25,668 bases of DNA from an uncultured Fusobacteriaceae bacterium (lineage in GTDB: Bacteria > Fusobacteriota > Fusobacteriia > Fusobacteriales > Fusobacteriaceae), in assembly GCA_964517235.1 (NCBI GenBank), contig CAZFBB010000023.1, forward strand, positions 1 to 25,668, in the 5' to 3' direction. The notes below the pieces were generated by a model, which had not been told where the DNA came from, did no database searches, and saw only the letters and a list, made by a program, of their open reading frames with translations. Of this stretch, positions 81 to 23,735 are shown piece by piece. The first letter of the stretch is position 1; every line of letters begins with the position of its first letter. Position numbers and translations under genes: made by a program.

Positions 81-950
81 TTATTTAGCTTCTTTTAACA
101 TCTTTTTGACATATGTAGGTAAAGCAAATGCACCTTTATGTATATCACTATTATAATACTTAGTATCTATAGAAAAATCTTCCCATATATCCTTTTTGTG
201 ATCTTTTATAGGGTGATATTTTTTTGAAGCAAATCCAAATAACCAATGACCTGACGCATATGTAGGCATATGAAATTGATAAACTTCTGCAATAGGAAAG
301 ATTTTATCTATTTTATTATGAGCTTTTTTCATTTCCTCTTTAAATACTTCATAATAAGGACTTTCATGTTGATTTACAAGTATACCTTCATCTGTTAATA
401 CTTTAAAGCAATTATTATAAAAATCTTCAGTAAAAAGTCCCTCTCCTACTGATATTGGATCTGTAGAATCTACTAAAATAAGATCGTATTGTCCACTTTT
501 ACATTCTTTAACAAACTGTAAACCATCTTTAAAATATAAAGTAACTCTTGGGTCTTCTAGTTTGTTTGATGTTAATGGAAGATATTTTTGAGAAAGTCTA
601 ACTACCCTTTCATCTATTTCTACCATATCTATTTTTTCTATATGTTTATATCGAGTAAGTTCTCTTACTGTACCACCGTCTCCACCACCAATTACTAATA
701 CTCTTTTTATATTAGGATTTGTTGCTAGAGGCACATGAGTAATCATATCATGGTATATAAATTCATCCTTTTCATTTACCATCATATATCCATCTAAAGT
801 AAAAAATATACCATATTCATTACTTTTAAAAAATTGTATCTCTTGAAATTCAGATTTTTCTGAATGTATTTGTTCCTTGACTTTTATAGAAAATCTTGTT
901 TCTTCACTCCATTTTTCAGTGAACCATAAATTTAACATTTTTACCTCCAA
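81..950 (-). CDS. speE: Spermidine synthase / polyamine aminopropyltransferase
   Basis: 289 aa. It carries the canonical aminopropyltransferase glycine-rich motif VLVIGGGDGG and a DSTDP acidic pocket, with an overall SpeE-like layout. A GGAGGT RBS lies 7 nt upstream of the ATG. It sits 22 bp downstream of speH in a typical speH-speE arrangement. Confidence 0.9.
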   Translation of the reverse strand: MEVKMLNLWFTEKWSEETRFSIKVKEQIHSEKSEFQEIQFFKSNEYGIFFTLDGYMMVNEKDEFIYHDMITHVPLATNPNIKRVLVIGGGDGGTVRELTRYKHIEKIDMVEIDERVVRLSQKYLPLTSNKLEDPRVTLYFKDGLQFVKECKSGQYDLILVDSTDPISVGEGLFTEDFYNNCFKVLTDEGILVNQHESPYYEVFKEEMKKAHNKIDKIFPIAEVYQFHMPTYASGHWLFGFASKKYHPIKDHKKDIWEDFSIDTKYYNSDIHKGAFALPTYVKKMLKEAK

Positions 951-972
951 TTGTAATTATTTTAAAATATAA

Positions 973-1389
973 TTATGCATTCTCAGGTTTAAAAGTTACT
1001 TTTCCCAATTTTTTTGGTGAAAATTTTTTAATTTTTTCTACCATTCCCCTTGGTATTTCAACAGACTCACTTCTATCTGCCTCAAATACTTTTTCTAAAT
1101 AATCAAATGCTATCCAAGGATTTATCTTGTCTCCACATGTAAAGACGTCAACTGCAGCATAACCATACTCTGGCCATGTATGTATAGCAAGGTGAGATTC
1201 TGATATAATTACTGCTCCGCTAACTCCATAGGGGTTAAAATGATGAAAAACCGAATCTACTATAGTTGCATTTGCAATTCTAGCAGCCTCATTCATGTGT
1301 TTTTCAATTAATTCTGGACTTGCCATTGTTTCTTCATTACAGTTGTAAAATTCAATTAAAATATGTCTTCCTAAAGTTTCTAATTTCAT
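973..1389 (-). CDS. speH: S-adenosylmethionine decarboxylase proenzyme, small pyruvoyl-dependent SpeH type
   Basis: The internal Met (MKLETLGRH...) gives 138 aa and is preceded by GGAGGAAAAA-ATG. Conserved motifs include ISESHLAIHTWPE, which holds the Glu-Ser self-cleavage site that forms the pyruvoyl group, and FTCG. The upstream 47 codons of the ORF-track ORF are AT-rich leader with no RBS. Confidence 0.85.
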   Translation of the reverse strand: MKLETLGRHILIEFYNCNEETMASPELIEKHMNEAARIANATIVDSVFHHFNPYGVSGAVIISESHLAIHTWPEYGYAAVDVFTCGDKINPWIAFDYLEKVFEADRSESVEIPRGMVEKIKKFSPKKLGKVTFKPENA

Positions 1390-2118
1390 TTTTTCCTCCA
1401 ATATTTTTATTAAACAAAAAGAAATTTTCTTTTTAAAAAAAATACTTACTATTACTAAACTTTCTTTACAGTTATTATATATAGTTAAATTAAAAATTTT
1501 TTGATAAACCCATTTCTTAAATTGTAACAAGTGTCTTTTAAAGAAAAACCTCTAAAATTCCTTTTAAATAAAGATAATAATTTACTAATAGTAATTATTA
1601 AGTTTACTTATGATAAACTTACCAAATAAATATATAATATTTCTAGTATATTGTCAACGATAATTTTGATGTTTTTTATAGATATTAACTTTTAAATTTA
1701 CTAATACTAAACTTTTTATTTCTAAATAAGAATAATTTAAATTATTTGTTTATAGTAAATAATCTTTATTATATATATTACCTTCTACTTTTTATTTCCT
1801 AAATCAATTATATACCTATATTTTTCAAAAAAAATTTTTTTTATTTATTTTTAGAGTTTTATAGGTAGATAAAATTGCTTTAATCTATAAAAAATTCTAA
1901 ATGTTTTTAAGAAGTTAAAATAATTTAAAAATATTTAATATAATCATAACTTTTAATGTGTAAATTAAGTTAATTGTCATTATTTTGTGTGCAAAGTTCA
2001 TCTCTTTTTAAGTTGGTTTTTGGAATTTTTTCTCATATAATTATATTAGAACAGGGGTATAAATATTGATATATTTATTTTTTATTTAAATTTTATTTAT
2101 CATTAGCTGGAGGTTATT

Positions 2119-10964: not shown

Positions 10965-11189
10965 CTACTTATCTTCACTTACAATTTCTTCTACTACTAC
11001 ATCTTCTGCAGTAACTTCTTCTGCACTTGTATCTTCTGAAACTGTAGTTTCTTCAGTTGCAATTGCTTCATTTGTTGTTGCTTCTACTTCTTGTTCTACA
11101 ACTACATTATCAACATTTTGATTTCCCTCTACATTTTTTCCACATGCTACAACTAATAATAAAGATAATGCTATTAATATTTTTTTCAT
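10965..11189 (-). CDS. Small acidic lipoprotein (74 aa) with a low-complexity Glu/Val/Thr-rich tail
   Basis: AAGGAG RBS with 8 nt spacer. Signal peptide plus lipobox (LLLVVAC). The mature part is strongly acidic (EEVEATTNEAIATEETTVSEDTSAEEVTAEDVVVEE). Confidence 0.5.
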   Translation of the reverse strand: MKKILIALSLLLVVACGKNVEGNQNVDNVVVEQEVEATTNEAIATEETTVSEDTSAEEVTAEDVVVEEIVSEDK

Positions 11190-11504
11190 TATTTATTTCT
11201 CCTTTTCTTCCTTAAGTTTCAAGAAGATTATATTATTAAACTGTGAAATTCTTGTGTATATTTTAATTTGATTTTAATTTTTCTTTAAATTTTATTTTTT
11301 TATTTTTAATGTAAATTTTTATATATAGATAAAATGCCTATAGGTATATTTTACATAATTGAGTTAAGGGATAAAAATGAAAATATTTTTTAACCATTTT
11401 TGTACAATTGTTTTTATATATGTTTAGTTTTAGTATATTTTTTTAAAAAAATGTTAATTTTCATGAACAGCTTTTAAAAAATAGTAGAAAAAAAAATTAG
11501 AAAG

Positions 11505-11513
11505 TGATATAAT
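11505..11513 (+). promoter_or_regulatory. Extended -10 element TGATATAAT upstream of the 11544 gene
   Basis: A perfect TGnTATAAT motif lies about 30 nt upstream of the start codon. The -35 region is A-rich and weak, for which the extended -10 typically compensates. Confidence 0.35.
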
Positions 11514-11543
11514 TAACTGAAAATGAATATAAGGGGTGAAGTA

Positions 11544-11855
11544 ATGAGTAGAAGTAACGTTTTACAAATCGTAAGAGATATGAGAAGAAAAAACAAAATC
11601 AAAAGAGAAATGGCTGATTTTGATAAAAAAATAAGAGATAACCAAAAAAGAGTTGATCTACTTGATAACCTTTTAACATATATCCAAACTGACATGTCTA
11701 TTGAAGAAATATTGGAAATCATTGAAAATATGAAAGGTGATTACGAAGAAAGAGTAGATGACTACATAATTAGAAAAGCTGAAGTTTCAAAAGAAAGAAG
11801 AGCTATTAACAAAAAAATTAAAGATTTATTAAAGGAAGAAAGAACTAAACATTAA
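11544..11855 (+). CDS. Small highly charged coiled-coil protein, hypothetical (103 aa)
   Basis: Start re-anchored to [10 protein letters not shown] on an AAGGGGTGAAG RBS. It has a K/R/E/D-rich heptad-like composition. A clean terminator lies downstream. Confidence 0.55.
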
Positions 11856-11859
11856 TAAT

Positions 11860-11886
11860 AAGGCAACTTAGTTGCCTTTTTTTTAT
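11860..11886 (+). terminator. Rho-independent terminator AAGGCAAC-tta-GTTGCCTT plus T8
   Basis: An 8-bp GC-containing stem with a 3-nt loop, followed by tttttttt. It begins 5 nt after the stop codon. Confidence 0.7.
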
Positions 11887-11931
11887 TTATAGTATATTAT
11901 AGTAGATAATAAAAGTGAAAAGTGGTGTAAA

Positions 11932-12885
11932 ATGGTTTATACAATTGTTGGAGATAGTTCTAGACTTATAGAGTTTGATAAAACTTTAAAAAAAATTAGA
12001 GAAAAAAATTTGGGAATAAATGAAAAGATTTTTGATGCTTCACTGGGAGAGCAAGAAAGTTTTATTGAAAATGCTCAAGTTTTTTCCATGTTTGCTTCAA
12101 AGGAGTTATTAATATTAAAACGTGGGGAAAATGTAGATAAACTTACAGATTTTTTAAATATACTTACAAAATTTAATTTGGATCAAAAAGAAATAATTAT
12201 TGATATAGAAAAAAAAGGTAACAATTTTGGTAAAAAAGCTGAAGGAATAGCAAAAGAGTTGGGGAAATTAATTATTGTAAAAGAAAGTACTCAAGGAGAA
12301 AATGCAATTTCTTTTATTAAAGAAGAATTAAGTATCGATAATAAATTAGCATATGAATTGAAAGAAATGATAGGGACAGACATACAACTAGTCAAAAATG
12401 AATTAGACAAGATAAAAAATTATTTTGATACTAGGAAATTTGATTTGGTAGAAGCGAGAAAAATTATTAGTATTAAAGAGGAGTATAGTATATTTGAAGT
12501 TATAGATAAAGTTATAAAAGGTAACAAAAAAGAGGGACTTAATTATATAGAAAAAGAGGGAAATACACATTTATTCCTCTATAATTTAGGTCAAGAGTTC
12601 AAAAATCTTTTTAAATTAAAGTTACTTATTCAAAAAGGTAAATTAATTTCTTCTACTAATTATAATACCTTTCAAAAATCATATAACAATAATAAGGAGT
12701 ATTTTAAAAATTCTAAGGGTTTTATGCATCCCTATGGTATCTTTAAAAAATTAGAAAATCTAAAATACTTTGATTTAGCAAGATTAAAAGAGCTTATTGA
12801 ATTAAGTCATGAAACTGAATATAAAATCAAAAATGGCTATGGAGAAGATAAAAGACTAGTTGAATTAATGATTTTGAAAATTTAA
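11932..12885 (+). CDS. holA: DNA polymerase III delta subunit (clamp-loader delta)
   Basis: 317 aa. The N-terminus MVYTIVGDSS...LIEFDKTLKKIREKN resembles the HolA N-terminal RFC-like domain (consensus MIY.IYGED). The length and helical C-terminal half fit. The protein has no Walker A motif, as expected for delta. The RBS is weak (GTGGTG). Confidence 0.55.
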   Translation: MVYTIVGDSSRLIEFDKTLKKIREKNLGINEKIFDASLGEQESFIENAQVFSMFASKELLILKRGENVDKLTDFLNILTKFNLDQKEIIIDIEKKGNNFGKKAEGIAKELGKLIIVKESTQGENAISFIKEELSIDNKLAYELKEMIGTDIQLVKNELDKIKNYFDTRKFDLVEARKIISIKEEYSIFEVIDKVIKGNKKEGLNYIEKEGNTHLFLYNLGQEFKNLFKLKLLIQKGKLISSTNYNTFQKSYNNNKEYFKNSKGFMHPYGIFKKLENLKYFDLARLKELIELSHETEYKIKNGYGEDKRLVELMILKI

Positions 12886-12933: not shown

Positions 12934-14250
12934 TTATAATAATCTAGCTGCTAGTTCAGCTAATTCTGATCTTTCTCCCTTAACTAGAGTTATATGTCCT
13001 GCTAATTCAACATTTTTAAATCTTTCTGCAAGATATGTAAGTCCGTTACTGTTTGCATCTAAATAGGGATTATCTATTTGGTATGGATCTCCTGTAAATA
13101 CTATTTTAGTGTCTGCTCCAGCTCTAGTAACTATTGTTTTTATTTCATGTGGAGTTAAGTTTTGAGCTTCATCTATTATCAAGAATCCTTTAGGTATACT
13201 TCTACCTCTAATATATGTTAGAGCTTCTATTTTCAATAAACCCATACTTTCTAAACCTGTAATAACCTTTTCTCCACCTTTTTTATCTTCATTACCTTTA
13301 TTACTTGTTAAGAAATCAAAATTATCATAAATAGGTTGTACCCAAGGTCTTAATTTTTCCTTTTCTCCCCCTGGAAGGTAACCAATGTCTTTTCCCATGG
13401 GAATTATAGGTCTAGCAATAAAGATTTTTTTATATAAATTCCTTTCAACTACTTGTTCAAGAGCACTAGCAAGAGCCAAAAGTGTTTTTCCAGTACCTGC
13501 TTTTCCTACAAGGGTTACAACACGAATATTAGGATCCATAAGCATTTCTACAGCACATTCTTGCTCATTGTTTCTTCCTCTAATTCCCCACATTTCAATA
13601 CTAGAGAAATTAAGTTTTTCCAAACGTTTTTTATTTTTCTTATATACCCCTAAGTGAGATTTATTTTCACATTTTAAATTAAACATCTCATTTGCATAAG
13701 GTTCTTTGTCAAATACTTCTATATATTTTACTCTACCTGCTTTAATAAATTTTTTATAGGGCTCTTCTTCTACTTCTATATCACTAAATCCACTATACAA
13801 TTCTGATATATCATATGTATCAGTTTCATAATCTTCTACTTTGAGGGACATAGAGTCTGCTTTTATACGCATATTTATATCTTTTGTAACGAGTATTACT
13901 GGATCTTTTGCATTCTTTTTTACCTCTAATGCAGTAGCCAAGATTCTATTATCCATTACATCTTTTTTGATGAAAAATGGTAATTGGGTTACATCACCAT
14001 TTATTTCTACAAATAATTTCCCACCATTATTAAGGCAAACGCCTTCAACTAAACTTCCTTTTTTTCTAAGGTCGTCTATAGATCTGGCTACAACTCTGGC
14101 ATTCCTACCTCTTTCACCATCTGCTCTCTTTAATGTATCGATCTCTTCAATTACATATATTGGTATTACTACATCATTATCAGCAAAACTAAAAATTGCC
14201 TTTGGGTCATGTATAAGTACATTTGTATCTAAAACATATACTTTTTTCAT
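12934..14250 (-). CDS. PhoH-like ATPase with N-terminal PIN domain (PhoH2 / YlaK family)
   Basis: 438 aa. AAGGAGG RBS with 8 nt spacer. The N-terminal PIN signature is YVLDTNVLIHDP, with acidic residues in place. The C-terminal PhoH P-loop has Walker A GKAGTGKT and Walker B FLIIDEAQN. Confidence 0.9.
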   Translation of the reverse strand: MKKVYVLDTNVLIHDPKAIFSFADNDVVIPIYVIEEIDTLKRADGERGRNARVVARSIDDLRKKGSLVEGVCLNNGGKLFVEINGDVTQLPFFIKKDVMDNRILATALEVKKNAKDPVILVTKDINMRIKADSMSLKVEDYETDTYDISELYSGFSDIEVEEEPYKKFIKAGRVKYIEVFDKEPYANEMFNLKCENKSHLGVYKKNKKRLEKLNFSSIEMWGIRGRNNEQECAVEMLMDPNIRVVTLVGKAGTGKTLLALASALEQVVERNLYKKIFIARPIIPMGKDIGYLPGGEKEKLRPWVQPIYDNFDFLTSNKGNEDKKGGEKVITGLESMGLLKIEALTYIRGRSIPKGFLIIDEAQNLTPHEIKTIVTRAGADTKIVFTGDPYQIDNPYLDANSNGLTYLAERFKNVELAGHITLVKGERSELAELAARLL

Positions 14251-14383: not shown

Positions 14384-14700
14384 AGGTTTCTGAAAAAACA
14401 TTACTACTTTATCTTTTAATACAAAATTAATACAAGATTTTAGGAGATATACTTGAATCTATCTTAATAAATCCTTTCTTATTCGGCAAAACTCAAAAAT
14501 TTATATTAAAAAATAAGATTAAATAACCACTATAGTTATCAAAATTCAAAAGTCACTCTTGGGGAGCTCAAAGAGCTCCCAACTCTTAAGATTCCTTTTG
14601 TTAATAATCTAAATTCCTTATATAGGTACACCTAAATAAAAAGTTAATAAAGTTTTTATTTTTAGAAAATTTTATTTGTTTACAGTTTTAGTTTTACTTA
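14384..14700. repeat. Copy 2 of the dispersed intergenic repeat family, between the giant-ATPase gene and phoH2
   Basis: See copy 1. It shares both the 5' block and the 3' block, which includes the GGGAGCTC-AAA-GAGCTCCC hairpin. Confidence 0.7.
14561..14580 (-). terminator. Perfect 8-bp GC-rich hairpin GGGAGCTC-aaa-GAGCTCCC, 145 nt downstream of the giant-operon stop. Candidate terminator or RNA structural element.
   Basis: The strongest GC stem in the window. The T-tract after it on the minus strand is imperfect (cttttgaatttt). Confidence 0.35.
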
Positions 14701-14725: not shown

Positions 14726-17700
14726 TTATTTTTTATTAAATAATTCACCTAATACCTTCAAATTGATTCCGATTTTGCTTAATTCTTCTACCACTTGCAA
14801 TACTCCCTTTTCATTTGAATTACTTTTATTTTCAAGGAATATTTTTTTAATTTCATTCCATCTAGCTAAAGAAGGATTATCTAATCTATCACTAATTTCT
14901 CTAAATTTTAATAAACTAGCTTCTGAATCACTTGCCAAAGTTTGAGCATCATTCTCATAAGCTTTTAGAATAAGATTTCTTATTTCATCCTCATTCATAA
15001 CAGGTACTATACGTTCAGCAATTTTATTCATATTTCTATATGAACCTTGTAGTTTAAATGGAGGTTCTACTCTATATTTGTCATTTTGACTAGCAGAAGT
15101 AATATACTCTATATTTACCCTTAGTATTTCATCTCTTACTTTTATCATATTAGATAAAAGTGATGAATATTCTTCTATGTCCCCTTCAGTATAATTTCCT
15201 TCTAATTCTATCTCTTCTCTATTTCCAACTTGAACAGCATTTATTAGTTTATATGTATCTTCTTGGTTTTTCATATATAATTTGTTCAAATATGGATTTG
15301 AAGTCATAGCATTTTCTAAATAAGATAGTTTAAAAGCTTCTTTATTTTCTCTAAGCATATCTCCAAGGTTGTAAACATCGGCTCTATTTGCTAGCATGTC
15401 TGGTATTTGAAACTTATCTCCACTTTCAGTATAAGGGTTTCCTGCCATTACTACTGCTACTTTCTTGCCCCTAAATTCATATGATTTACTCCTACCTTGC
15501 CATATACCTTCTATCTTACGTTGTCCATCGCATAGAGAAATAAATTTTTGTAAAAATTCAGGATTAGAATGTTGTATATCATCTAAATAGATAATTACAT
15601 TATTTCCCATTTCAAAGGCTAAATTCAATTTTTCAAGTTCCTCTTTGGCATTGGCATTTTTTGCTTCATTTGGGTCAAGACTAGTAATACCATGACCAAT
15701 AGTTGGGCAGTTAATCTTTATTAATAACATATTAAGTCTATTTGCAATATACTCCATAAGGGTAGTTTTACCATAACCGGGAGGTGAGATGAGTAGAAGC
15801 ATACCCATATTATCAGTTCTTTTATTTGCACCAGCAACACCTATTTGTTTGGCAAAATTATCTCCTATAAGAGGAAGATATACTTGATCTATAAGTTTAT
15901 TTCTAACAAAACTAGTTAAAACTTTTGGTTTTAACTCATTAAACTTAAGTTGGTATTTTCTATCTTCTATTAATTTATTCTTAAGTTTTTGGAAGTCATT
16001 AAATAATAATAAATTTTTACTTGTAAACTCTTCTAGTTTATAAAAAAAATCTACCAAATTAACTTCATATTTACCATTATCAATTAATTTATGTACTCCA
16101 ACAAGGTCATCTATCTTTATTTGACTTGATTCAGGTACTTTTCTTCTACTTTCCATATCTCCTATAAGATATAGGTTTTTCACTTCTTCAAAGTAACTAT
16201 TTTTATTTAGATTTTTATGACTTAAATAAGTATTGACCCATTCACTTATAAGTATATAGCTTCCATGTAAATCACCCCTTAATTTTTCTAGAGAGTGTTT
16301 AAAATCTTCCTTTGCATTTATACTTACTAAATAGTTGTTAAAATCTAGGTATAATTCTTCTCCTTCTTTACTAAGGATAAAGTTATTGTGTGAGCTAATT
16401 TCTAAAGCTAAATAGAGAGAAATTCTTTCTATATTAGCCCTAGGAAAAAAGTTATTATTTTCATAAAATTCTTCTACTCTATCTTTAAGATAAGGTATGA
16501 GCATATTTACAAAATTTCCACTTTTATGCCTGTTAATTATACTTAGTGTTTTAAGTCTAATTTCAATTTTACTTTTTTCTTCTTTATCTATACCAAAATT
16601 CCAAAGGTAATTAGCCATGGCTCTAACTTCAGGTTTATAAAGGGATAAACCAATTTCTTTGTTAGTTTTAACAATATTTTCAAGTATCTTTAAACTATCA
16701 ATATCATGAACTCCTTTGGTGTAGTATTCATTATAGTGACTTTCTACATATTTATCTACAAGCTTTTTAAGTCCTTCTCTACCTAAAGTATAAAGTTTAT
16801 CTAAAGAATTTTCATCTTCAAAAGATTTGAATATATTGTATGCTAAAAACTCTCCTCTATATACTTCCTGATTTTCACTTATAAGTTCTTGATTCCATAC
16901 ATATTCATATTTTGAAAGTAAACTTTCTTCTACTTTTTCAAAATAATCTGTACCACTTATATGATAATAAAATCTATCTCCTTTCCTTAAAAGAGTTAAT
17001 TCAGTTTTACCATCTGAAACTAAAAAGTTATTATTACCAAATTTAATAGTATTTCCATCAAGGAATAGTTCCTTTTTATCCTTTAATTGTTTAATACTAT
17101 TTTCTTTAAGACTTTTAAGTTTACTCTCAATCTCACTAGCTTTTGTAGCATCTCCTAATTTAATTAGGTTTTCTATAATATCTCTTATCTTTTCTACCAT
17201 TAAATCTGTAGAAAAAATTTCATTTATAGCTTTTAAGTCATCAATAGTCTTTAATCTATTACTTAAACCTTTAAAGACTCTTTCACTTGCATCAAATAAT
17301 GAATTAATTTTTTTATTCTTTTTTTCAATCAAACCTTGTTTTTTTTGAGTAAAGGCACTAACTATTTCTTCCCTTTTTTCTGTTAATTGTGGAATAAATT
17401 CTTCGAAATCACTAAATTTACTTTCTAATTCATCTATTTGAACTATTATTTTAGTCAAATAAGAATCTACTTTTTCTATAGTATCTGAAAGATTTAGATA
17501 ATTTGATATAGACTGAGTAATTAAATTTAATTTTGAGTAAAAGTCACTCTTTCTTTCTTTAGAATCCAAATTTTCAACTATATTATTCAATTTTGATTTA
17601 ATACCATTAAGTGTTGCAAATAGTGATGAAATTTTATCTATAATTTCAGAAGATTTAGTTGTGTCTTCTATCTTTAAACTATTAACAATAGTAATAAGTA

Positions 17701-19609
17701 ATTCTAGTTCTTCACTTATTCCTATTATTTTTTCTTCCAATTCTCTTCCATCAATTACTTTAGTAATATTTTCCAAGGTACCTTTACACTCTTCAACACT
17801 AGCAATATAAGGACCAAGACTTTCATCTAATAATAAGAAGTTAATGCAATCATCACTGATTTTTTCATTAGCTTCCCTAATGGCATTTGCCATTTTTTCA
17901 ACTTTTTCCAAATTCACAAATTGTAAATCTTTTAATCCTGTTATTTCTCCCCTTAATTTCCTTAATTTCCTTAGGTATAAAACAAAATCATTAATTTTTT
18001 CAAAAGTGGTGTATTTAATAGTTTTTAAGATGTTTTCACAAGCCTCTTCAACTTTTATACTTTCCTTTTTAGTTTCTTCCCTTATAAAATTTACTTTTTC
18101 ATATTCTTTTATAGCAATGGTAGCAGCCTCTTTTATTTTTAAAAGAGATTCTTTAAGACCAAAAGCTTCTTTTTTGTCAAGCCAAAAATAGTTGTTTATT
18201 ATAGTTTCAGTATCATTAACTATATCAACATAAAGTCCATAGTAACTATCTTCTCTTCTTATTAACTTGTAAAGAGTAGTAATATCAGCAATAGCTCTTA
18301 CAATGCTCTTATTACCAAGATTATATAAAAAAGAACCTTTAACTTCTTCATCTTCTACTTCTAAAGAAGCAGAAAAACTGGTTTCCCATATTTTTAAAGT
18401 ATGGTTACGTTTAGGTTCTAATTCTGCTTTGAAAACAGCCATGTGTCCATTGTCAAAGTGCGCATAACCACTGGCTATTATAGGTGGATTTGCATTTTGA
18501 TTAATTATATTATATGAATAAATATAATATTCTCCACTTTTGTGGTTATAAAAGATATACTGATAATCTTCTCCGTTTTGAGAAACTTTTTTTTCATTGA
18601 ATACTACATTTTCAAAATCAACATCAAATTTTGAAAAACCTCCACCACTTTGTCTAACTAGACCGTTTGGAACTAGGATACCATGGTTTTCAGGTAGAAG
18701 TATACATGCTTTTCCAATACTATCTATTCTATGAACTTCTTTAGTTTTTTGATTAAAAGTAAAGTATCTATAGTTTCTTTCTTGATATGGTTTAATTCTA
18801 AGAAGAATTATATTTCCTGTAATTGAGTAAGATATATCTCCATCATCAAGACTTTGATCTAAGTTTTCAACTGGTTCAGAATAGATTCCCTTTCCACTAT
18901 TTGTATTATTTTCTATTTTGAGAGTTAAATCTCCTCCAATAGTTTCAACAAATAATTTATCTTCTATACTAATGTGAGGATGTTCACCATTAACATGATC
19001 CTCTCTACTAGTTCTTTTCCATTCTATTTCTTGTTGCAAACCATAATTAACTTCATGTGATGATCTATTACCAGCATATTCTAATTTATCATCATTAACA
19101 AACCACTTAAAGGCTTTGATATTGGTAAAATCATTTCCATTTTGAAAAACCATATATAAATATCCATTTTTTTCAAAAAATTTAGTAAAAAAACTTTCTT
19201 TATAATATTTATATAAATCTTCAAATTCACTAAGAAATTTATCGTCTAATAGTAGGGAATAATCGGATTTGCTAAAACTTTCTCCATTGTATTCATAAAT
19301 ACTAAAAACGTCATTAATTTTTATTTTGCTTTTTAGTCCCATGTGAACATTGTAACCTAATATAACCTTGTTTCCTATGGGTACGATATCTCTTGGGATA
19401 CAGTTATTTTCAGTTAAGATAGCTTCTGTTTTTAGAAGTTTAGCAACTTTTTCCCCAAAAACATTAACTCTTTCTCTATTAAGTTTATCCAAACTACTTT
19501 TTAATTCACTAGATGTATCAAGTAATCTATTACGTATAACATTGTAGGCAGCAAAGGTCTCTTGACCTTTGCTACTTTTGCTTTCCTTTTTTTCTATATT
19601 ATCTTCCAT
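14726..19609 (-). CDS. Giant (1627 aa) multidomain protein with a beta-rich N-terminal region, long central coiled coil and a MoxR/McrB-type (AAA_5-like) ATPase module near the C-terminus
   Basis: AAGGGGG RBS 8 nt upstream of the ATG, which lies 11 bp after the flotillin stop. The AAA+ module has Walker A LLLISPPGYGKTT (about nt 15770-15800), Walker B NVIIYLDDIQH and a sensor region VAVVMAGNPYTESGDKFQIPDMLANRADVY. That sensor matches the NP...G...lP.al.nR pattern of AAA_5/MoxR/McrB ATPases. Residues about 480-860 are K/E/L/I-rich heptad-like coiled coil. The first about 450 aa are Tyr/Asn/Gly-rich, suggesting a beta fold. Confidence 0.8.
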   Translation of the reverse strand: MEDNIEKKESKSSKGQETFAAYNVIRNRLLDTSSELKSSLDKLNRERVNVFGEKVAKLLKTEAILTENNCIPRDIVPIGNKVILGYNVHMGLKSKIKINDVFSIYEYNGESFSKSDYSLLLDDKFLSEFEDLYKYYKESFFTKFFEKNGYLYMVFQNGNDFTNIKAFKWFVNDDKLEYAGNRSSHEVNYGLQQEIEWKRTSREDHVNGEHPHISIEDKLFVETIGGDLTLKIENNTNSGKGIYSEPVENLDQSLDDGDISYSITGNIILLRIKPYQERNYRYFTFNQKTKEVHRIDSIGKACILLPENHGILVPNGLVRQSGGGFSKFDVDFENVVFNEKKVSQNGEDYQYIFYNHKSGEYYIYSYNIINQNANPPIIASGYAHFDNGHMAVFKAELEPKRNHTLKIWETSFSASLEVEDEEVKGSFLYNLGNKSIVRAIADITTLYKLIRREDSYYGLYVDIVNDTETIINNYFWLDKKEAFGLKESLLKIKEAATIAIKEYEKVNFIREETKKESIKVEEACENILKTIKYTTFEKINDFVLYLRKLRKLRGEITGLKDLQFVNLEKVEKMANAIREANEKISDDCINFLLLDESLGPYIASVEECKGTLENITKVIDGRELEEKIIGISEELELLITIVNSLKIEDTTKSSEIIDKISSLFATLNGIKSKLNNIVENLDSKERKSDFYSKLNLITQSISNYLNLSDTIEKVDSYLTKIIVQIDELESKFSDFEEFIPQLTEKREEIVSAFTQKKQGLIEKKNKKINSLFDASERVFKGLSNRLKTIDDLKAINEIFSTDLMVEKIRDIIENLIKLGDATKASEIESKLKSLKENSIKQLKDKKELFLDGNTIKFGNNNFLVSDGKTELTLLRKGDRFYYHISGTDYFEKVEESLLSKYEYVWNQELISENQEVYRGEFLAYNIFKSFEDENSLDKLYTLGREGLKKLVDKYVESHYNEYYTKGVHDIDSLKILENIVKTNKEIGLSLYKPEVRAMANYLWNFGIDKEEKSKIEIRLKTLSIINRHKSGNFVNMLIPYLKDRVEEFYENNNFFPRANIERISLYLALEISSHNNFILSKEGEELYLDFNNYLVSINAKEDFKHSLEKLRGDLHGSYILISEWVNTYLSHKNLNKNSYFEEVKNLYLIGDMESRRKVPESSQIKIDDLVGVHKLIDNGKYEVNLVDFFYKLEEFTSKNLLLFNDFQKLKNKLIEDRKYQLKFNELKPKVLTSFVRNKLIDQVYLPLIGDNFAKQIGVAGANKRTDNMGMLLLISPPGYGKTTLMEYIANRLNMLLIKINCPTIGHGITSLDPNEAKNANAKEELEKLNLAFEMGNNVIIYLDDIQHSNPEFLQKFISLCDGQRKIEGIWQGRSKSYEFRGKKVAVVMAGNPYTESGDKFQIPDMLANRADVYNLGDMLRENKEAFKLSYLENAMTSNPYLNKLYMKNQEDTYKLINAVQVGNREEIELEGNYTEGDIEEYSSLLSNMIKVRDEILRVNIEYITSASQNDKYRVEPPFKLQGSYRNMNKIAERIVPVMNEDEIRNLILKAYENDAQTLASDSEASLLKFREISDRLDNPSLARWNEIKKIFLENKSNSNEKGVLQVVEELSKIGINLKVLGELFNKK

Positions 19610-19620
19610 TTATTTCCCCC

Positions 19621-21747
19621 TTAGTCCAATAATTCATGTACTGGGATATTTTCCATTCCTAATGACTTTATTTTTTCTATAGTTTTTAATATAAAGGGTT
19701 TCTTTTCATTACTGCTATTATCCATTAGGTTTAGTAGTGCAGAAGAGATAGTTAAATTTTTGATATCTTCTGTATTTATGCCAAATAAATCAACAAAATT
19801 TCTTAATTCTTCCTTAAATTTTCTTTGGTCTCCATTAAAAAATGTTTCTTTTACATCTTTTAAAACATGTGATTTATCAATTAAAGCATCTGCTTGTTTA
19901 CCAACAGTAATAGTTTTAATTAATTTATCAAAGAAGATACTGTCTCCACCAACAATGTCTATATTTGAGTTTTTAAGTCCTTCACTAACAACTTGAGCTT
20001 GAGCAAGGGCAATATCTTTTTGTATAGAGATTTGAGCAAGTTCAATTTCCTTCTCTTTATTAAGTCTAAGTTTAAATTCTTCATGTTCTCTACCAATAGC
20101 ATCAAATTCCTTCATAGCTTGAGCTTTTTCATTGATACCTTCAGCTTCGGCTACTGCTTTTTCTTTTATTACTTTAGCTTCAGCTACACCTTCTGCTTCT
20201 ACTCCCTTAGCAGTAGCAAGTTTTTCAGCTTCAATACCTTTTGCAATTGCAGTTGCTTCTTTTTCTATAGCTTCAGCTTTTGCATCAGCTTCAAGTTTAG
20301 TTACTTTTGCTTTTGCAATACCTTCAACTTCAATAGCTTCAGCTCTAGCTTTTATAACTCTAGCTTCTGATACTCCCTCAACAGCAGCTTCTTCTGCTCT
20401 TGCATCAGCAATAACTTTTGTTGCTTCAGCTTGCTTAAATGAAGTTTTTAAATTTGTTTCAGCAATAACTATATCCTTTTCAGCTTTTATCTCAGCTGAT
20501 TTTTTGTCAGCTTCAGCTTCTTTAATTCTATCAATTACTTTTACTTCTGCATCAGCTTCAGCAAGAGTTATACTAACTTTTTTCTTTCTATCAGCTTCAG
20601 CAAACTCTTTAGTATCTTTTATTTTTTCCTCTTCGAGTACAACTGATTTTTGTACCATTACTCTTTCTTTTATTACTTCTTGTATATTTTTATTTTCTTC
20701 CTCTACTTTTTTATTTTTTTCAATTTGTGCAAGAGTAACTATCTTTTCTCTTTCAGTCTTTTCCAATTCTCTTTGTTTTTCAACTCTTTCTGATTCGATA
20801 GCTTCAGTTGCTTCTTTTGCTTTTTGAGCAACAATAACAGATCTTTGTTTGTTTTCTTCTAAAATTGAAAGTTCTTCATCAGTTTTAATTCTTGCTTGTT
20901 CATACTTAAATCTTTCTTCTTCAGCAACAGTTTTAATTTGAGAATCTTCTCTGCTTTGTATAGTTTTAATTTCTCTTTCTTGTTTTGCTTCTGCTTCTGC
21001 TTGTTGTTTTTCAAGTTCTAGAATTGCTTCTCTAGCACTTACATCTTGTTCTTTAATAGTTTTTTCTTTGTCTCTTTGGATTTGATTTGCTTTAACCATT
21101 TCAGAGGCAGTTTTTTCTGTGATTTTTTTGATACCTTCAGAATCTAATACATTATCTGGATTTAAGAATTTAAGCTCTGTTTGTTCTAGATAATCAATGG
21201 CTGCATCTTCCAGTTTATATCCATTTAAGTCTTCACCAATAACTTGTAGTATCTCCTCTTTAAATTGAACTCTTTCAGTATAAAGTTGGACAAAATCAAA
21301 CTTTTTACCAGCTGTTTTAAGTGCTTCAGAAAATTTCGCATCAAAAAACTCCATAAGAGTGCTAGAATCAGATGCTTTTTGAGTTCCTAAAGCTTTTGCA
21401 ACTTTTAAAACATCTTCTTGATTGTCATTTACCTTTACGAAAAAGGCTACTCTAATATCAGCTCTTAAATTATCCTTACAAATTAGTCCATCCTTACCTT
21501 CTCTAGCTATTTCAACTCTCTTAACTGAAATATTCATTATTTCCCAGTTATGAAGTATAGGGACTACCCACATACCTGTAAATGATACTTTTGAACCTCC
21601 AAGCCCATTTCTCACTATAGCTTTTCCTTGTGTAACTTTTTTGTAAAATAATTTTAAAACTAGTGGAAAACCAATAAATAGTAGTCCAAAAACTCCCCAA
21701 GCTACTGTAGCTAATAATTTAAAAAGGTTTGTATCAAAATTTTCCAT
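19621..21747 (-). CDS. Flotillin-family SPFH/band-7 protein (YqiK-like) with an N-terminal membrane anchor and a long Ala/Glu/Lys-rich coiled coil
   Basis: 708 aa. AGGAGGA RBS. An N-terminal transmembrane helix (LFKLLATVAWGVFGLLFIGFPLVL) is followed by an SPFH core (AIVRNGLGG.KVSF, GLICKDNLRADIRVAFFVKV). The EA-repeat region (AEAKAEAIEKEATAIAKGIEAEKLATAKGVEAEGVAEAKVIKEKAVAEAEG) is typical of flotillin/YqiK. Confidence 0.85.
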   Translation of the reverse strand: MENFDTNLFKLLATVAWGVFGLLFIGFPLVLKLFYKKVTQGKAIVRNGLGGSKVSFTGMWVVPILHNWEIMNISVKRVEIAREGKDGLICKDNLRADIRVAFFVKVNDNQEDVLKVAKALGTQKASDSSTLMEFFDAKFSEALKTAGKKFDFVQLYTERVQFKEEILQVIGEDLNGYKLEDAAIDYLEQTELKFLNPDNVLDSEGIKKITEKTASEMVKANQIQRDKEKTIKEQDVSAREAILELEKQQAEAEAKQEREIKTIQSREDSQIKTVAEEERFKYEQARIKTDEELSILEENKQRSVIVAQKAKEATEAIESERVEKQRELEKTEREKIVTLAQIEKNKKVEEENKNIQEVIKERVMVQKSVVLEEEKIKDTKEFAEADRKKKVSITLAEADAEVKVIDRIKEAEADKKSAEIKAEKDIVIAETNLKTSFKQAEATKVIADARAEEAAVEGVSEARVIKARAEAIEVEGIAKAKVTKLEADAKAEAIEKEATAIAKGIEAEKLATAKGVEAEGVAEAKVIKEKAVAEAEGINEKAQAMKEFDAIGREHEEFKLRLNKEKEIELAQISIQKDIALAQAQVVSEGLKNSNIDIVGGDSIFFDKLIKTITVGKQADALIDKSHVLKDVKETFFNGDQRKFKEELRNFVDLFGINTEDIKNLTISSALLNLMDNSSNEKKPFILKTIEKIKSLGMENIPVHELLD

Positions 21748-21759
21748 TCAAATATCCTC

Positions 21760-22233
21760 CTAATTTTTTTTGTATAAATAATCTATAGCAATGTCTTCTA
21801 CATTAACTATATTTTTATTGATATTGTTCAATCTAACTAATATTTCTTTTTTATAATTTTTACTTCTACTCTCTAAACTTTCATAATTGTATATTTTACT
21901 AACTTCAATCAAAATACTTTCCAAATCTATAATAAGATTTCCATTGGTGTTTTTTTCGTTTATATAATTAATCCCTTGGTCTATAGTCACTTTACTATAG
22001 ACTTTTCCTTTAACCTCAAAGGGGATATTATCTTTGCTTTGTAAATTTTCAGTAAATTTAAATGGAATAACTTTGATAGTACTATCTATAATAGTTATTT
22101 TTTGAAAGATAATATTGTAAATGACAAGGGTTTCTGTAATTTTTTCTCCCAAAAGTCCTTTTACTATAATTAATTCATTTAATTTTGCTTTTTTTACTCT
22201 AAAAGTTAAAAGAATAAAAAGTATAGTTCCCAT
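21760..22233 (-). CDS. Small membrane protein with a single transmembrane helix (157 aa) and a beta-rich body. Possible truncated SPFH-like or NfeD-like fold.
   Basis: It lies 12 bp upstream of the flotillin gene. It has an N-terminal hydrophobic helix. The segment STIKVIPFKFTENLQSKDNIPFEVKGKVYSKV loosely resembles the TKDN...V.YRV strand region of SPFH domains. The RBS spacing is poor (GGGAGG is 19 nt from the ATG), so the start and even the coding status are less secure. Confidence 0.45.
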   Translation of the reverse strand: MGTILFILLTFRVKKAKLNELIIVKGLLGEKITETLVIYNIIFQKITIIDSTIKVIPFKFTENLQSKDNIPFEVKGKVYSKVTIDQGINYINEKNTNGNLIIDLESILIEVSKIYNYESLESRSKNYKKEILVRLNNINKNIVNVEDIAIDYLYKKN

Positions 22234-22247
22234 TAAAATATAAATAA

Positions 22248-22913
22248 TTATTCCTCCCTTTCATAAAGTTTTATAACTAAATAAACATCTCTTTCTTCTA
22301 CTTCTTCTATTATCTGTACTATGTCCTTTTTAAAAAGATGTTTTTCATTTGAAATTACATTTAAAAGTATTTCACTTCCATTTCCCCTTTTAATCAGGGC
22401 TTGTCCAAGTCTATTGGGTTCCAAACTAGTTTGCATAATAGCTCTTTTGCCAATAGGATTAAATGTGCAATCATCTTCTAATCCTTGAAAAAATGGTAAT
22501 AAGGGTTTAGTTAACCCCTTTGTCACTATTAAACTAGCATTCATATTAATTAATAGGAGAATGAAAGACATAAAAGACTTTGGACTAAAAGGAAAATAAT
22601 ATGTAAGCATAGTAAGTATCCATAAGATACAAATATAAATGGTAATATAAACCATAAATGGAATTGTATCCATATGAGAAAATTCCAAAAATTTTCTAAA
22701 AAATCCTGAATTATCTATTTCAACTTGCTCTGAATTATTAAAATCAAAATCTCCATCTATATCAAAATCTCTATCTATATCAAAATTAAAATCTAACATA
22801 TCTTGTGAAATAAATCCTAATATTACAAATATCCAATATAAAATTACAAAAGTTAAAAGTATTGTAACAATTGTATTTATACCAGTTATAGAAAATAATA
22901 AATATTCTTTCAT
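22248..22913 (-). CDS. YqiJ/DUF1449-like inner-membrane protein with an NfeD-type C-terminal beta-barrel. It is the first gene of the flotillin operon.
   Basis: 221 aa. AAAGGAG RBS. It has N-terminal transmembrane helices and an Asp-rich acidic loop (DFNFDIDRDFDIDGDFDFNN), then further hydrophobic segments. The C-terminus (GQALIKRGNGSEILLNVISNE...IVQIIEEVEERDVYLVIKL) fits an NfeD-like OB/beta-barrel pattern. The architecture and its position upstream of a flotillin gene match E. coli yqiJ-yqiK. Confidence 0.55.
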   Translation of the reverse strand: MKEYLLFSITGINTIVTILLTFVILYWIFVILGFISQDMLDFNFDIDRDFDIDGDFDFNNSEQVEIDNSGFFRKFLEFSHMDTIPFMVYITIYICILWILTMLTYYFPFSPKSFMSFILLLINMNASLIVTKGLTKPLLPFFQGLEDDCTFNPIGKRAIMQTSLEPNRLGQALIKRGNGSEILLNVISNEKHLFKKDIVQIIEEVEERDVYLVIKLYEREE

Positions 22914-22960
22914 AATTGACTCCTTTCAAGAATAATTTGTATAATATTTTATATAAAAAA

Positions 22961-22989
22961 ATTTTATCAAATTTATTTATAAAATGCAA
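22961..22989 (-). promoter_or_regulatory. Candidate sigma70 promoter for the yqiJ-like/flotillin/giant-ATPase operon (-35 TTGCAT, 17 nt spacer, -10 TAAAAT)
   Basis: Read on the minus strand about 45-75 nt upstream of the 22913 start codon. The region is AT-rich, so chance matches are likely. Confidence 0.25.
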
Positions 22990-23417
22990 TGTATAAATTT
23001 TTCAACTATAATTTTTGTAATAATTTAAATAAAAATGTTGAAAATAGTTAAATTTTCACTTTAGATTATTGAAATAAAGAAAAATTATTACTGTAACTGC
23101 TCTCTTACTAAACCTGTATAAGGGGGTTTGAAAAAAGTTTTAATATGTATCAACCTAGTGATTTCTATGATTGTTAAGGCTAAATCCCACCCTATTTATA
23201 TCTAATATTTTAAGAAATATTTACCTCTACTTTTTATGTTGATAATTGCTCAAATCTCTATCTATTTCTTTAAACCAAGTTAACTCTTTTTTAAAGTGTT
23301 GATTATCTTCCTTCTTTTAAAATTCAATTTTTTCATTAAGAAGACGATTATATGCAAATCTGACATAAGCAAAAGTCTTATGGATTAAAGTTAGTAGTTC
23401 TTGATTTTTAATAAATA

Positions 23418-23540
23418 AAGAAGGATTTATTCAAGGTAGATTCAGTTATGTTACTAAAACCTTGTATAATTTTTCTATCAAGATAAAAACAATGATATTT
23501 TTTAAAAGCTATCTGTTTGTCTTCAACCTGATAATGATTT
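23418..23540. repeat. Copy 3 (inverted orientation, shorter) of the dispersed intergenic repeat family, upstream of the flotillin operon
   Basis: gaaggatttattcaaggtagattcagttatgttact...tatcaagataaaaacaatgatattttttaaaagctatctgtttgtcttcaacctg matches the reverse complement of 5260-5380 (ctgaataaggaagatttatccgacgtagattcagttatgtctc...tatcaagacaaaagtaatgatgttttttttaaaaactaattatttgtctttgacctg). Confidence 0.6.
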
Positions 23541-23735
23541 TATTTTTTTAATTTAGGAAATTATTATATTTTATTATATAGTAAAATTAATTAAATAATT
23601 TTAGTAGAAGATAAGTTTTTTATGTGGAACTGTAGTTTAAAAAGGTTTTTAACTATTAATTATTTTCTATATTAAGTGTCATATATAATATAGTTTATTT
23701 GAAAGATAGCTCGACCTAAATGGTCAAGCTATATA

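Follow-up and report, generated by a model that had tools for sequence, protein, structure and literature searches.

What is the task of a very large ATPase that is encoded directly behind a flotillin gene? This question is raised by a 25,668-nucleotide stretch of DNA from an uncultured Fusobacteriaceae bacterium (GenBank assembly GCA_964517235.1, contig CAZFBB010000023.1; the whole stretch is referred to here as the window). On its minus strand, positions 14726 to 19609 (stop codon included) hold a giant gene whose product of 1627 amino acids (aa) carries DUF3686, DUF7902 and a single AAA+ module. The gene is one uninterrupted open reading frame (ORF). An original prediction, made from the sequence alone, pictured the product as a motor attached by a rod to a binding domain. 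The interpretation favoured here, to which a probability of roughly 60% is assigned, is that the giant protein is a soluble AAA+ partner or remodeller of a flotillin/NfeD membrane assembly.

The evidence that carries this interpretation is gene order. The giant gene closes an operon on the minus strand that encodes, in order, a YqiJ/NfeD2-like protein, a protein of 157 aa, a YqiK-type flotillin and the giant ATPase, with gaps of 14, 12 and 11 nt between them. The last of these gaps separates the flotillin stop codon from the giant gene, and a GGGGG Shine-Dalgarno sequence, called as strong, is found 6 nt before the giant-gene ATG. The flotillin gene (SPFH2 type; 19621-21747, minus strand) encodes 708 aa with one N-terminal transmembrane or hairpin segment (residues 7-36) and was recognized by its match to E. 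coli YqiK (29% identity over 452 aa, E-value: 1e-51). Its homologues bear the names flotillin or YqiK, and some of them match PF01145 (Band_7). The window protein itself has no Pfam match to Band_7, and a sequence search of the PDB with it gave no match. The first gene of the operon (22248-22913, minus strand) encodes a YqiJ/NfeD2-like membrane protein of 221 aa with three transmembrane-like segments. YqiJ_N scores 22.6 bits on this protein, just under the cut-off of 23, and is matched in 6 of 24 orthologues. An hhalign comparison with E. coli YqiJ, which is of similar size, gave an E-value of 3.6e-4 at a probability of 37%.

The same arrangement recurs wherever relatives of the giant protein are encoded. 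Among 33 genome loci that encode such relatives, 31 include upstream sequence, and in all 31 a flotillin homologue lies directly upstream of the giant gene; in 27 of these loci a YqiJ-like gene is found ahead of the flotillin gene. Clustering of all ORFs across the giant-gene loci revealed no other conserved neighbour. All five distant members of the family (25-35% identity) show a gene for approximately 200-270 aa, then a flotillin gene (597-710 aa) and then the giant gene. A search begun from a flotillin homologue returned the same order (2/2 loci), so that a flotillin gene directly precedes the giant gene in 38 of 38 loci with upstream DNA. Such strict synteny points to a membrane-scaffold function rather than to a free-standing motor on a rod, and because the giant gene always follows the flotillin gene, its product is likely to act at the membrane instead of in DNA repair. 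The protein itself is soluble: it is without a transmembrane-like segment, and its hydropathy maximum (KD19) is 1.12.

The NfeD2-SPFH2 gene pair has been known since 2009 (PMC2636767). Operons that combine three proteins, including a YqiJ/YuaF-type protein with three transmembrane segments, are described in a study of PSP envelope-stress systems (PMC11237479; mSystems 2024), in which abbreviated operons of just those genes are reported to be widely distributed and a chaperone-like or membrane-remodelling role is proposed. A supplementary table of that study lists a 'Betapropeller+Coiled-coil+AAA-ATPase' after the flotillin gene in Dokdonia. The published ATPase family has the same domain order, length (1,600-1,900 aa) and place directly after the flotillin gene as the protein studied here. 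Nothing essential differs between the window locus and the published operons. It is without PspA or CesT/Tir genes, there being no such Pfam matches in the neighbouring ORFs, and so represents the 'abbreviated' three-gene form; it also has the extra 157-aa ORF. In the operons yqiJ-yqiK of E. coli and yuaF-floT of B. subtilis, which are of the NfeD2-SPFH2 type, YqiJ and YqiK correspond to the products of the first and third genes of the window operon, although the match to YqiJ is weak. These model operons lack a giant ATPase gene, and the window flotillin is approximately 150 residues longer at its C-terminal end.

The 157-aa ORF (21760-22233, minus strand) stands between the YqiJ-like and flotillin genes and is lineage-specific, being seen only here and at the locus of a close Fusobacteriaceae metagenome-assembled genome (MAG; locus L030). 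It has no Pfam match. Its sequence is weakly collinear with flotillin residues 36-189, in the SPFH part (23% identity, pairwise E-value: 0.04), and it may be a truncated SPFH paralogue.

The giant protein belongs to a large family. More than 2,616 homologues were found at E-values of 1e-5 or lower, and the best 120 of these are nearly all full-length (approximately 1,610-2,020 aa), with 45-89% identity and the same Pfam set. DUF3686 (PF12458, 'ATPase involved in DNA repair') covers residues 35-475 of the giant protein and all of the profile (positions 1-448 of 448; E-value: 2.8e-157), and DUF7902 (PF25472) covers residues 597-676 (E-value: 1e-19). A search of 1.84 billion cluster representatives (50% clustering) with the N-terminal head alone gave 614 matches, 208 of them at E-values of 1e-30 or lower. 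Full-length proteins of 1,600-1,930 aa carry the head at the N-terminus, and shorter entries resemble fragments. Judged by these comparisons, the architecture is the norm of a widespread family and not an oddity of the window. The adjective 'unusual' in the original prediction is contradicted by the invariant layout of DUF3686, DUF7902 and AAA among these homologues, a layout that had moreover been published (PMC11237479). The window copy is another member of the family, and its only addition is the one lineage-specific extra ORF.

Named members come from Orenia, Halanaerobacter, Haliovirga, Clostridium, Vallitalea, Vibrio and Actinomycetota (45-62% identity), and the protein of a Fusobacteriaceae MAG is 89% identical. 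Outside its own Fusobacteriaceae lineage, the nearest named relatives are from Halanaerobiales (Orenia, 62%; Halanaerobacter, 59%), just above Haliovirga of the Fusobacteriota (58%). That Halanaerobiales rank above other Fusobacteriota is a hint of lateral transfer of the operon between phyla. On one metagenome contig (L041, 9049-13940) the giant ATPase is encoded in four pieces (ORFs of 113, 288, 690 and 344 aa), next to a flotillin gene. The flotillin sequence of this contig is identical to that of locus L040, which has an intact ATPase (1641 aa); either the copy on the contig is disrupted or the contig was misassembled.

The layout of the giant protein was examined in two AlphaFold2 (AF2) models built from 55-sequence alignments and covering residues 1-880 (mean pLDDT: 82) and 861-1627 (mean pLDDT: 84). 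The order of modules had been correctly foreseen as head, rod and ATPase. The term 'tripartite' does not hold, as residues 848-1260 contain further domains and residues 1415-1627 are helical, and the AF2 models suggest at least five or six modules rather than three. The protein is predicted to begin with a long helix (residues 17-51; 19457-19561, minus strand; coordinates of all modules below refer to the same strand). This is followed by the beta-rich head (residues 57-409; 18383-19441), which sits within DUF3686 (18185-19507).

The head contains approximately 27 strands in the model (pLDDT mostly 83-92), arranged in five clear four-strand meanders plus composite ones, and its beta-rich character had been rightly foreseen. 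It had also been suggested to be a beta-propeller or lectin-like binding domain, and for the propeller the evidence is divided. A Foldseek search of the PDB returned many 6-7-bladed beta-propellers (Ski8, CyRPA, the prolyl-oligopeptidase propeller, Rrn6, Vps18, the clathrin N-terminal domain and neuraminidase) with probabilities of 0.99-1.0, but with E-values of only 1e-5 to 1e-4 and low target-normalized TM-scores (0.16-0.33), and no internal blade repeat was detectable when the head was compared with itself by hhalign. The head appears in the model to be beta-rich and propeller-like, in line with the published 'Betapropeller' label. The peptide YQYIFYNHKSGEYYIYSYNIINQ, which had been quoted as an example of enrichment in Tyr, Asn, Gly and Ser, corresponds to residues 349-371. 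This enrichment is present but slight: the fraction of these four residues per 100-aa bin is 0.25-0.34 in the head, as against 0.16-0.25 for the helical region and 0.22-0.30 for the remainder.

Residues 427-847 (17069-18331) form a segmented alpha-helical region that includes DUF7902 (17582-17821). It had been described as a coiled coil of approximately 400 aa, and this description is right as to helix content and heptad pattern: the mean score for hydrophobic residues at heptad a and d positions is 0.40, compared with 0.256 +/- 0.023 in shuffled sequences. This register-based score with its shuffle control told more than a simple Fourier heptad test, in which the peaks were moderate only. The signal is segmented (residues 469-507, 568-599, 619-689, 701-745 and 761-791), and a similar signal occurs at residues 1184-1215. 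AF2 divides the region into 12 helices of 14-58 aa with loops of 1-8 residues between them. One uninterrupted 400-aa coiled coil is ruled out by these short helices broken by loops. As modelled, the region is best described as a chain of antiparallel, spectrin-like helical bundles, and it may well be elongated. A Pfam search with the helical region alone gave a sub-threshold match to the ALIX V-domain (E-value: 3e-4; 20.6 bits, cut-off 30.8), which is treated as a similarity of helical composition. Lys and Glu make up 24-29% of the helical region and 13-23% of the protein elsewhere. The marked purine skew that had been noticed in the DNA over this region does not exceed that of the genes around it. 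On the coding strand, purines reach a fraction of 0.606 over residues 476-880, compared with 0.586 over the gene as a whole, 0.626 in the flotillin gene and 0.51-0.63 in the other genes of the window. Because neighbouring genes show comparable fractions, the skew can be regarded as the norm for an A+T-rich genome.

Between the helical region and the ATPase, AF2 places a small beta unit (residues 848-892; 16934-17068), the strands of which close the first model and open the second, and an all-alpha domain (residues 918-1149; 16163-16858) with pLDDT above 90 and no Pfam match. Strands at residues 1163-1184 and two long helices (1185-1221 and 1234-1256) then lead into the ATPase (15842-16123). 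In Pfam searches with separate segments, no match was obtained for residues 881-1240 or 1401-1627. A degenerate second AAA lobe, which had been raised as a possibility for residues 900-1250, was rejected because the AF2 model there gives the all-alpha domain plus small beta elements.

The ATPase is a single P-loop module at residues 1271-1394 by Pfam (AAA itself: 1271-1391), starting approximately 356 residues from the C-terminus, in agreement with the single ATPase that had been placed approximately 350 aa from the end. Both AAA (33 bits) and AAA_5 (28.2 bits, cut-off 22) pass their cut-offs; RuvB_N (24 bits, cut-off 27) and AAA_22 fall below theirs. Pfam, AF2, conservation and Foldseek together delimit the AAA+ core to residues 1271-1414 (15368-15799), for which AF2 predicts five strands plus a lid. 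No other part of the protein is as conserved as this core (mean column identity: 0.88). The Walker A motif SPPGYGKTT (residues 1275-1283; GYGKT(T) placed at 1279-1283) is invariant in 55 sequences. The Walker B motif IIYLDD (residues 1338-1343; YLDD at 1340-1343) ends in Asp-Asp (residues 1342-1343; window positions approximately 15581-15586) in place of the usual Asp-Glu, with Asp where the catalytic Glu would normally stand, and this too is invariant across the 55 homologues. N1391 (putative sensor-1), R1409 (putative arginine finger) and R1525 are all invariant, their roles being assigned by position. From AF2 and conservation, residues 1415-1627 (14729-15367) were delimited as an expanded helical lid plus C-terminal region. 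This stretch holds the invariant motif QGSYRNM within PFKLQGSYRNMNK (approximately residues 1517-1529), which may be sensor-2-like by analogy with RuvB.

The core has a beta-hairpin (residues 1365-1378) ahead of strand 4. The nearest structures found by Foldseek for the module are the MoxR-type proteins CbbQ and NorQ, then RuvB and ClpA (E-values: 9e-6 to 1e-4, probability 1.0). Searches of PDB sequences with the single sequence and with a family profile gave weak P-loop matches only, to RuvB (E-value: 0.002-0.03) and p97, and PHROGs gave only generic similarity to ATPases and clamp loaders, the clamp-loader profile alignment running through residue 1553. CbbQ, NorQ and RuvB likewise possess one AAA+ module in which a beta-hairpin precedes strand 4. 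The giant protein differs from them in its approximately 1,270 unrelated N-terminal residues, the Asp-Asp of Walker B and the expansion of the lid by approximately 100 residues, and its sequence similarity to them is weak (PDB E-values of at least 0.002). As for membership of the AAA_5/MoxR/dynein subgroup, the generic AAA profile outscores AAA_5, there is one module, no gene for a VWA partner is present nearby, and the resemblance in fold to CbbQ and NorQ, though real, is weak. The module is a divergent AAA+ of the hairpin-before-strand-4 group and not specifically a relative of dynein or midasin. Most likely it assembles into a hexameric ring. The giant protein resembles SMC and Rad50 proteins in being very long and helix-rich and in having a P-loop. 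Unlike in those proteins, both Walker motifs fall within a single AAA+ domain instead of sitting at the two ends, the helices are broken into short lengths, and there is no hinge. As the two motifs are approximately 60 residues apart, the protein is not SMC-like, and the original prediction was correct on this point.

From the observed domain anatomy, family membership and conserved gene order, we infer the following model. The propeller-like head and the spectrin-like bundles would serve as a module for binding a substrate or partner and as a spacer, respectively. The most likely partner would be the cytoplasm-facing flotillin/NfeD assembly encoded just upstream. Hydrolysis of ATP by the AAA+ module would then remodel the flotillin oligomer, by assembling, disassembling or opening it, or would act on its clients. 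Possible analogies are Vps4 with ESCRT-III and FtsH inside the HflK/C cage. The similarity to FtsH-HflK/C lies in the genetic coupling of an AAA+ ATPase to a scaffold of the SPFH family, accompanied here by an NfeD-like partner. Unlike FtsH, the giant ATPase is a soluble protein that lacks a protease domain and has eight times the size of its AAA+ core, and the scaffold is of the flotillin type (SPFH2) and not HflK/C.

Several points weigh against this model. Synteny indicates functional linkage and says nothing about physical contact or the direction of action. Many bacteria, E. coli among them, possess yqiJK but lack the ATPase, so flotillin does not need it in general. Since Walker B carries Asp-Asp and not the canonical Asp-Glu, hydrolysis may be slow or the mechanism atypical. 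The propeller assignment of the modelled head is not solid, given the mixed evidence on which it rests, and the Dokdonia protein is equated with this family on architecture and operon only. A literature search on DUF3686, PF12458, DUF7902 and 'DNA repair ATPase' with flotillin yielded no paper and no experiment on the ATPase. Besides PMC11237479, the literature on YqiK/AAA and on flotillin/NfeD/AAA+ consisted of papers on FtsH-HflK/C or on SPFH proteins in general.

A more specific version of the model, which can be put forward only tentatively, is that the giant protein is a dedicated, ATP-driven remodeller of the flotillin cage. It would form a hexamer of approximately 1 MDa, with six propeller-like heads on spectrin-like arms gripping the flotillin/NfeD assembly at its cytoplasmic cap or wall in order to open, disassemble or load it.

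Alternatively, the flotillin/NfeD assembly may be only a membrane dock at which the ATPase unfolds or extracts other membrane-proximal clients, in the manner of FtsH-HflK/C without a protease domain. This is the less probable use of the same flotillin synteny, which it accommodates as readily as the partner or remodeller reading does. The large head and the extra domains at residues 848-1260 could recognize such clients, and SPFH cages are known to house AAA+ proteases. However, no conserved gene for a client, protease or adaptor occurs in the neighbourhood. The present data do not separate this reading from that of a flotillin/NfeD partner or remodeller.

It is improbable that the three genes constitute an anti-phage or conflict system in which a membrane sensor or effector is coupled to a large NTPase. 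Such systems are brought to mind by the pairing of a very large multidomain ATPase with membrane partners, by flanking genes that differ among genomes and by the relationship to Halanaerobiales (59-62% identity), with its hint of lateral transfer. Weak P-loop matches to IetA, IteA and mad8 were also obtained, but a PADLOC search with the four operon proteins gave only P-loop noise (E-values: 0.0017-0.005). Domains of the nuclease, protease or toxin kind are absent, the operon is flanked by housekeeping genes, and the yqiJK core is itself a long-known operon of the housekeeping type (PMC2636767).

An autonomous dynein- or midasin-like motor on a rod, with no dedicated membrane partner, is more doubtful still, even though AAA_5 is above its cut-off, an elongated helical region lies between head and ATPase, and dynein chains are among the weak Foldseek matches. 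The target-normalized TM-scores of the dynein matches are 0.03-0.05, only one AAA+ module is present, and the rod consists of short bundles and is not a stalk-like antiparallel coiled coil. An autonomous motor would also leave the strict flotillin synteny unexplained. Thus, of the motor, rod and binding domain in the original prediction, the binding-type head, the helical spacer and the single AAA+ module are retained, and the free-standing motor is given up in view of that synteny.

Least credible of all is a DNA repair ATPase, as the protein is called in Pfam and PGAP, since the sole support comes from these database names and from weak RuvB-type matches confined to the P-loop region, while Pfam finds no DNA-binding or nuclease domain in the giant protein, no repair genes are conserved nearby, the synteny is with membrane proteins, and no paper was found that supports the name.

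The surroundings of the operon offer several further observations. The region of approximately 820 bp before the first operon gene (22914-23735) contains no ORF of at least 70 aa and, like the rest of the window, no match to any Rfam family. A promoter-like site, TTGATA-18-TATTAT, is found there on the minus strand (22970-22941), but such sites are no commoner than chance in the region. Overall, a scan for promoters and terminators found no more of them than chance would give, and it called no minus-strand terminator behind the giant gene. Approximately 146 nt past the giant stop codon, in an A+T-rich spacer, lies a perfect G+C-rich hairpin on the minus strand (14562-14580), GGGAGCTC-TTT-GAGCTCCC. 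The terminator scan passed over it because no T-run follows directly, and it could mark the end of a transcript or a site of processing. On the same strand, a spacer of 475 bp separates the giant gene from a downstream gene for a PIN-PhoH fusion protein of 438 aa (12934-14250); the position of the latter next to the operon is not conserved in any other locus. Genes for spermidine synthase and S-adenosylmethionine decarboxylase are found at 81-1530 (minus strand). Polyamine genes have been linked to PspA/flotillin contexts (PMC11237479). Those of the window are 13 kb off, with unrelated genes between, and so are probably unconnected to the operon. At the locus of one of the distant family members (L034), a TelA gene (PF05816, toxic-anion resistance; 11001-12221) lies directly downstream of the giant gene on the same strand, and is a further neighbour of the envelope-stress type.

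The practical value of this locus is that it corrects the label 'DNA repair ATPase', which NCBI/PGAP gives to many of the homologues, and points to the link with flotillin. If the protein is indeed a dedicated remodeller of the flotillin cage, it would be for SPFH scaffolds the counterpart of what Vps4 is for ESCRT-III or NSF for SNAREs, and it would give a mechanistic handle on the bacterial flotillins, whose function is still debated. More generally, a conserved AAA+ partner would offer a testable flotillin mechanism, namely ATP-dependent control of scaffold assembly or client handling, in a large multi-phylum family that includes tractable Vibrio and Clostridium species.

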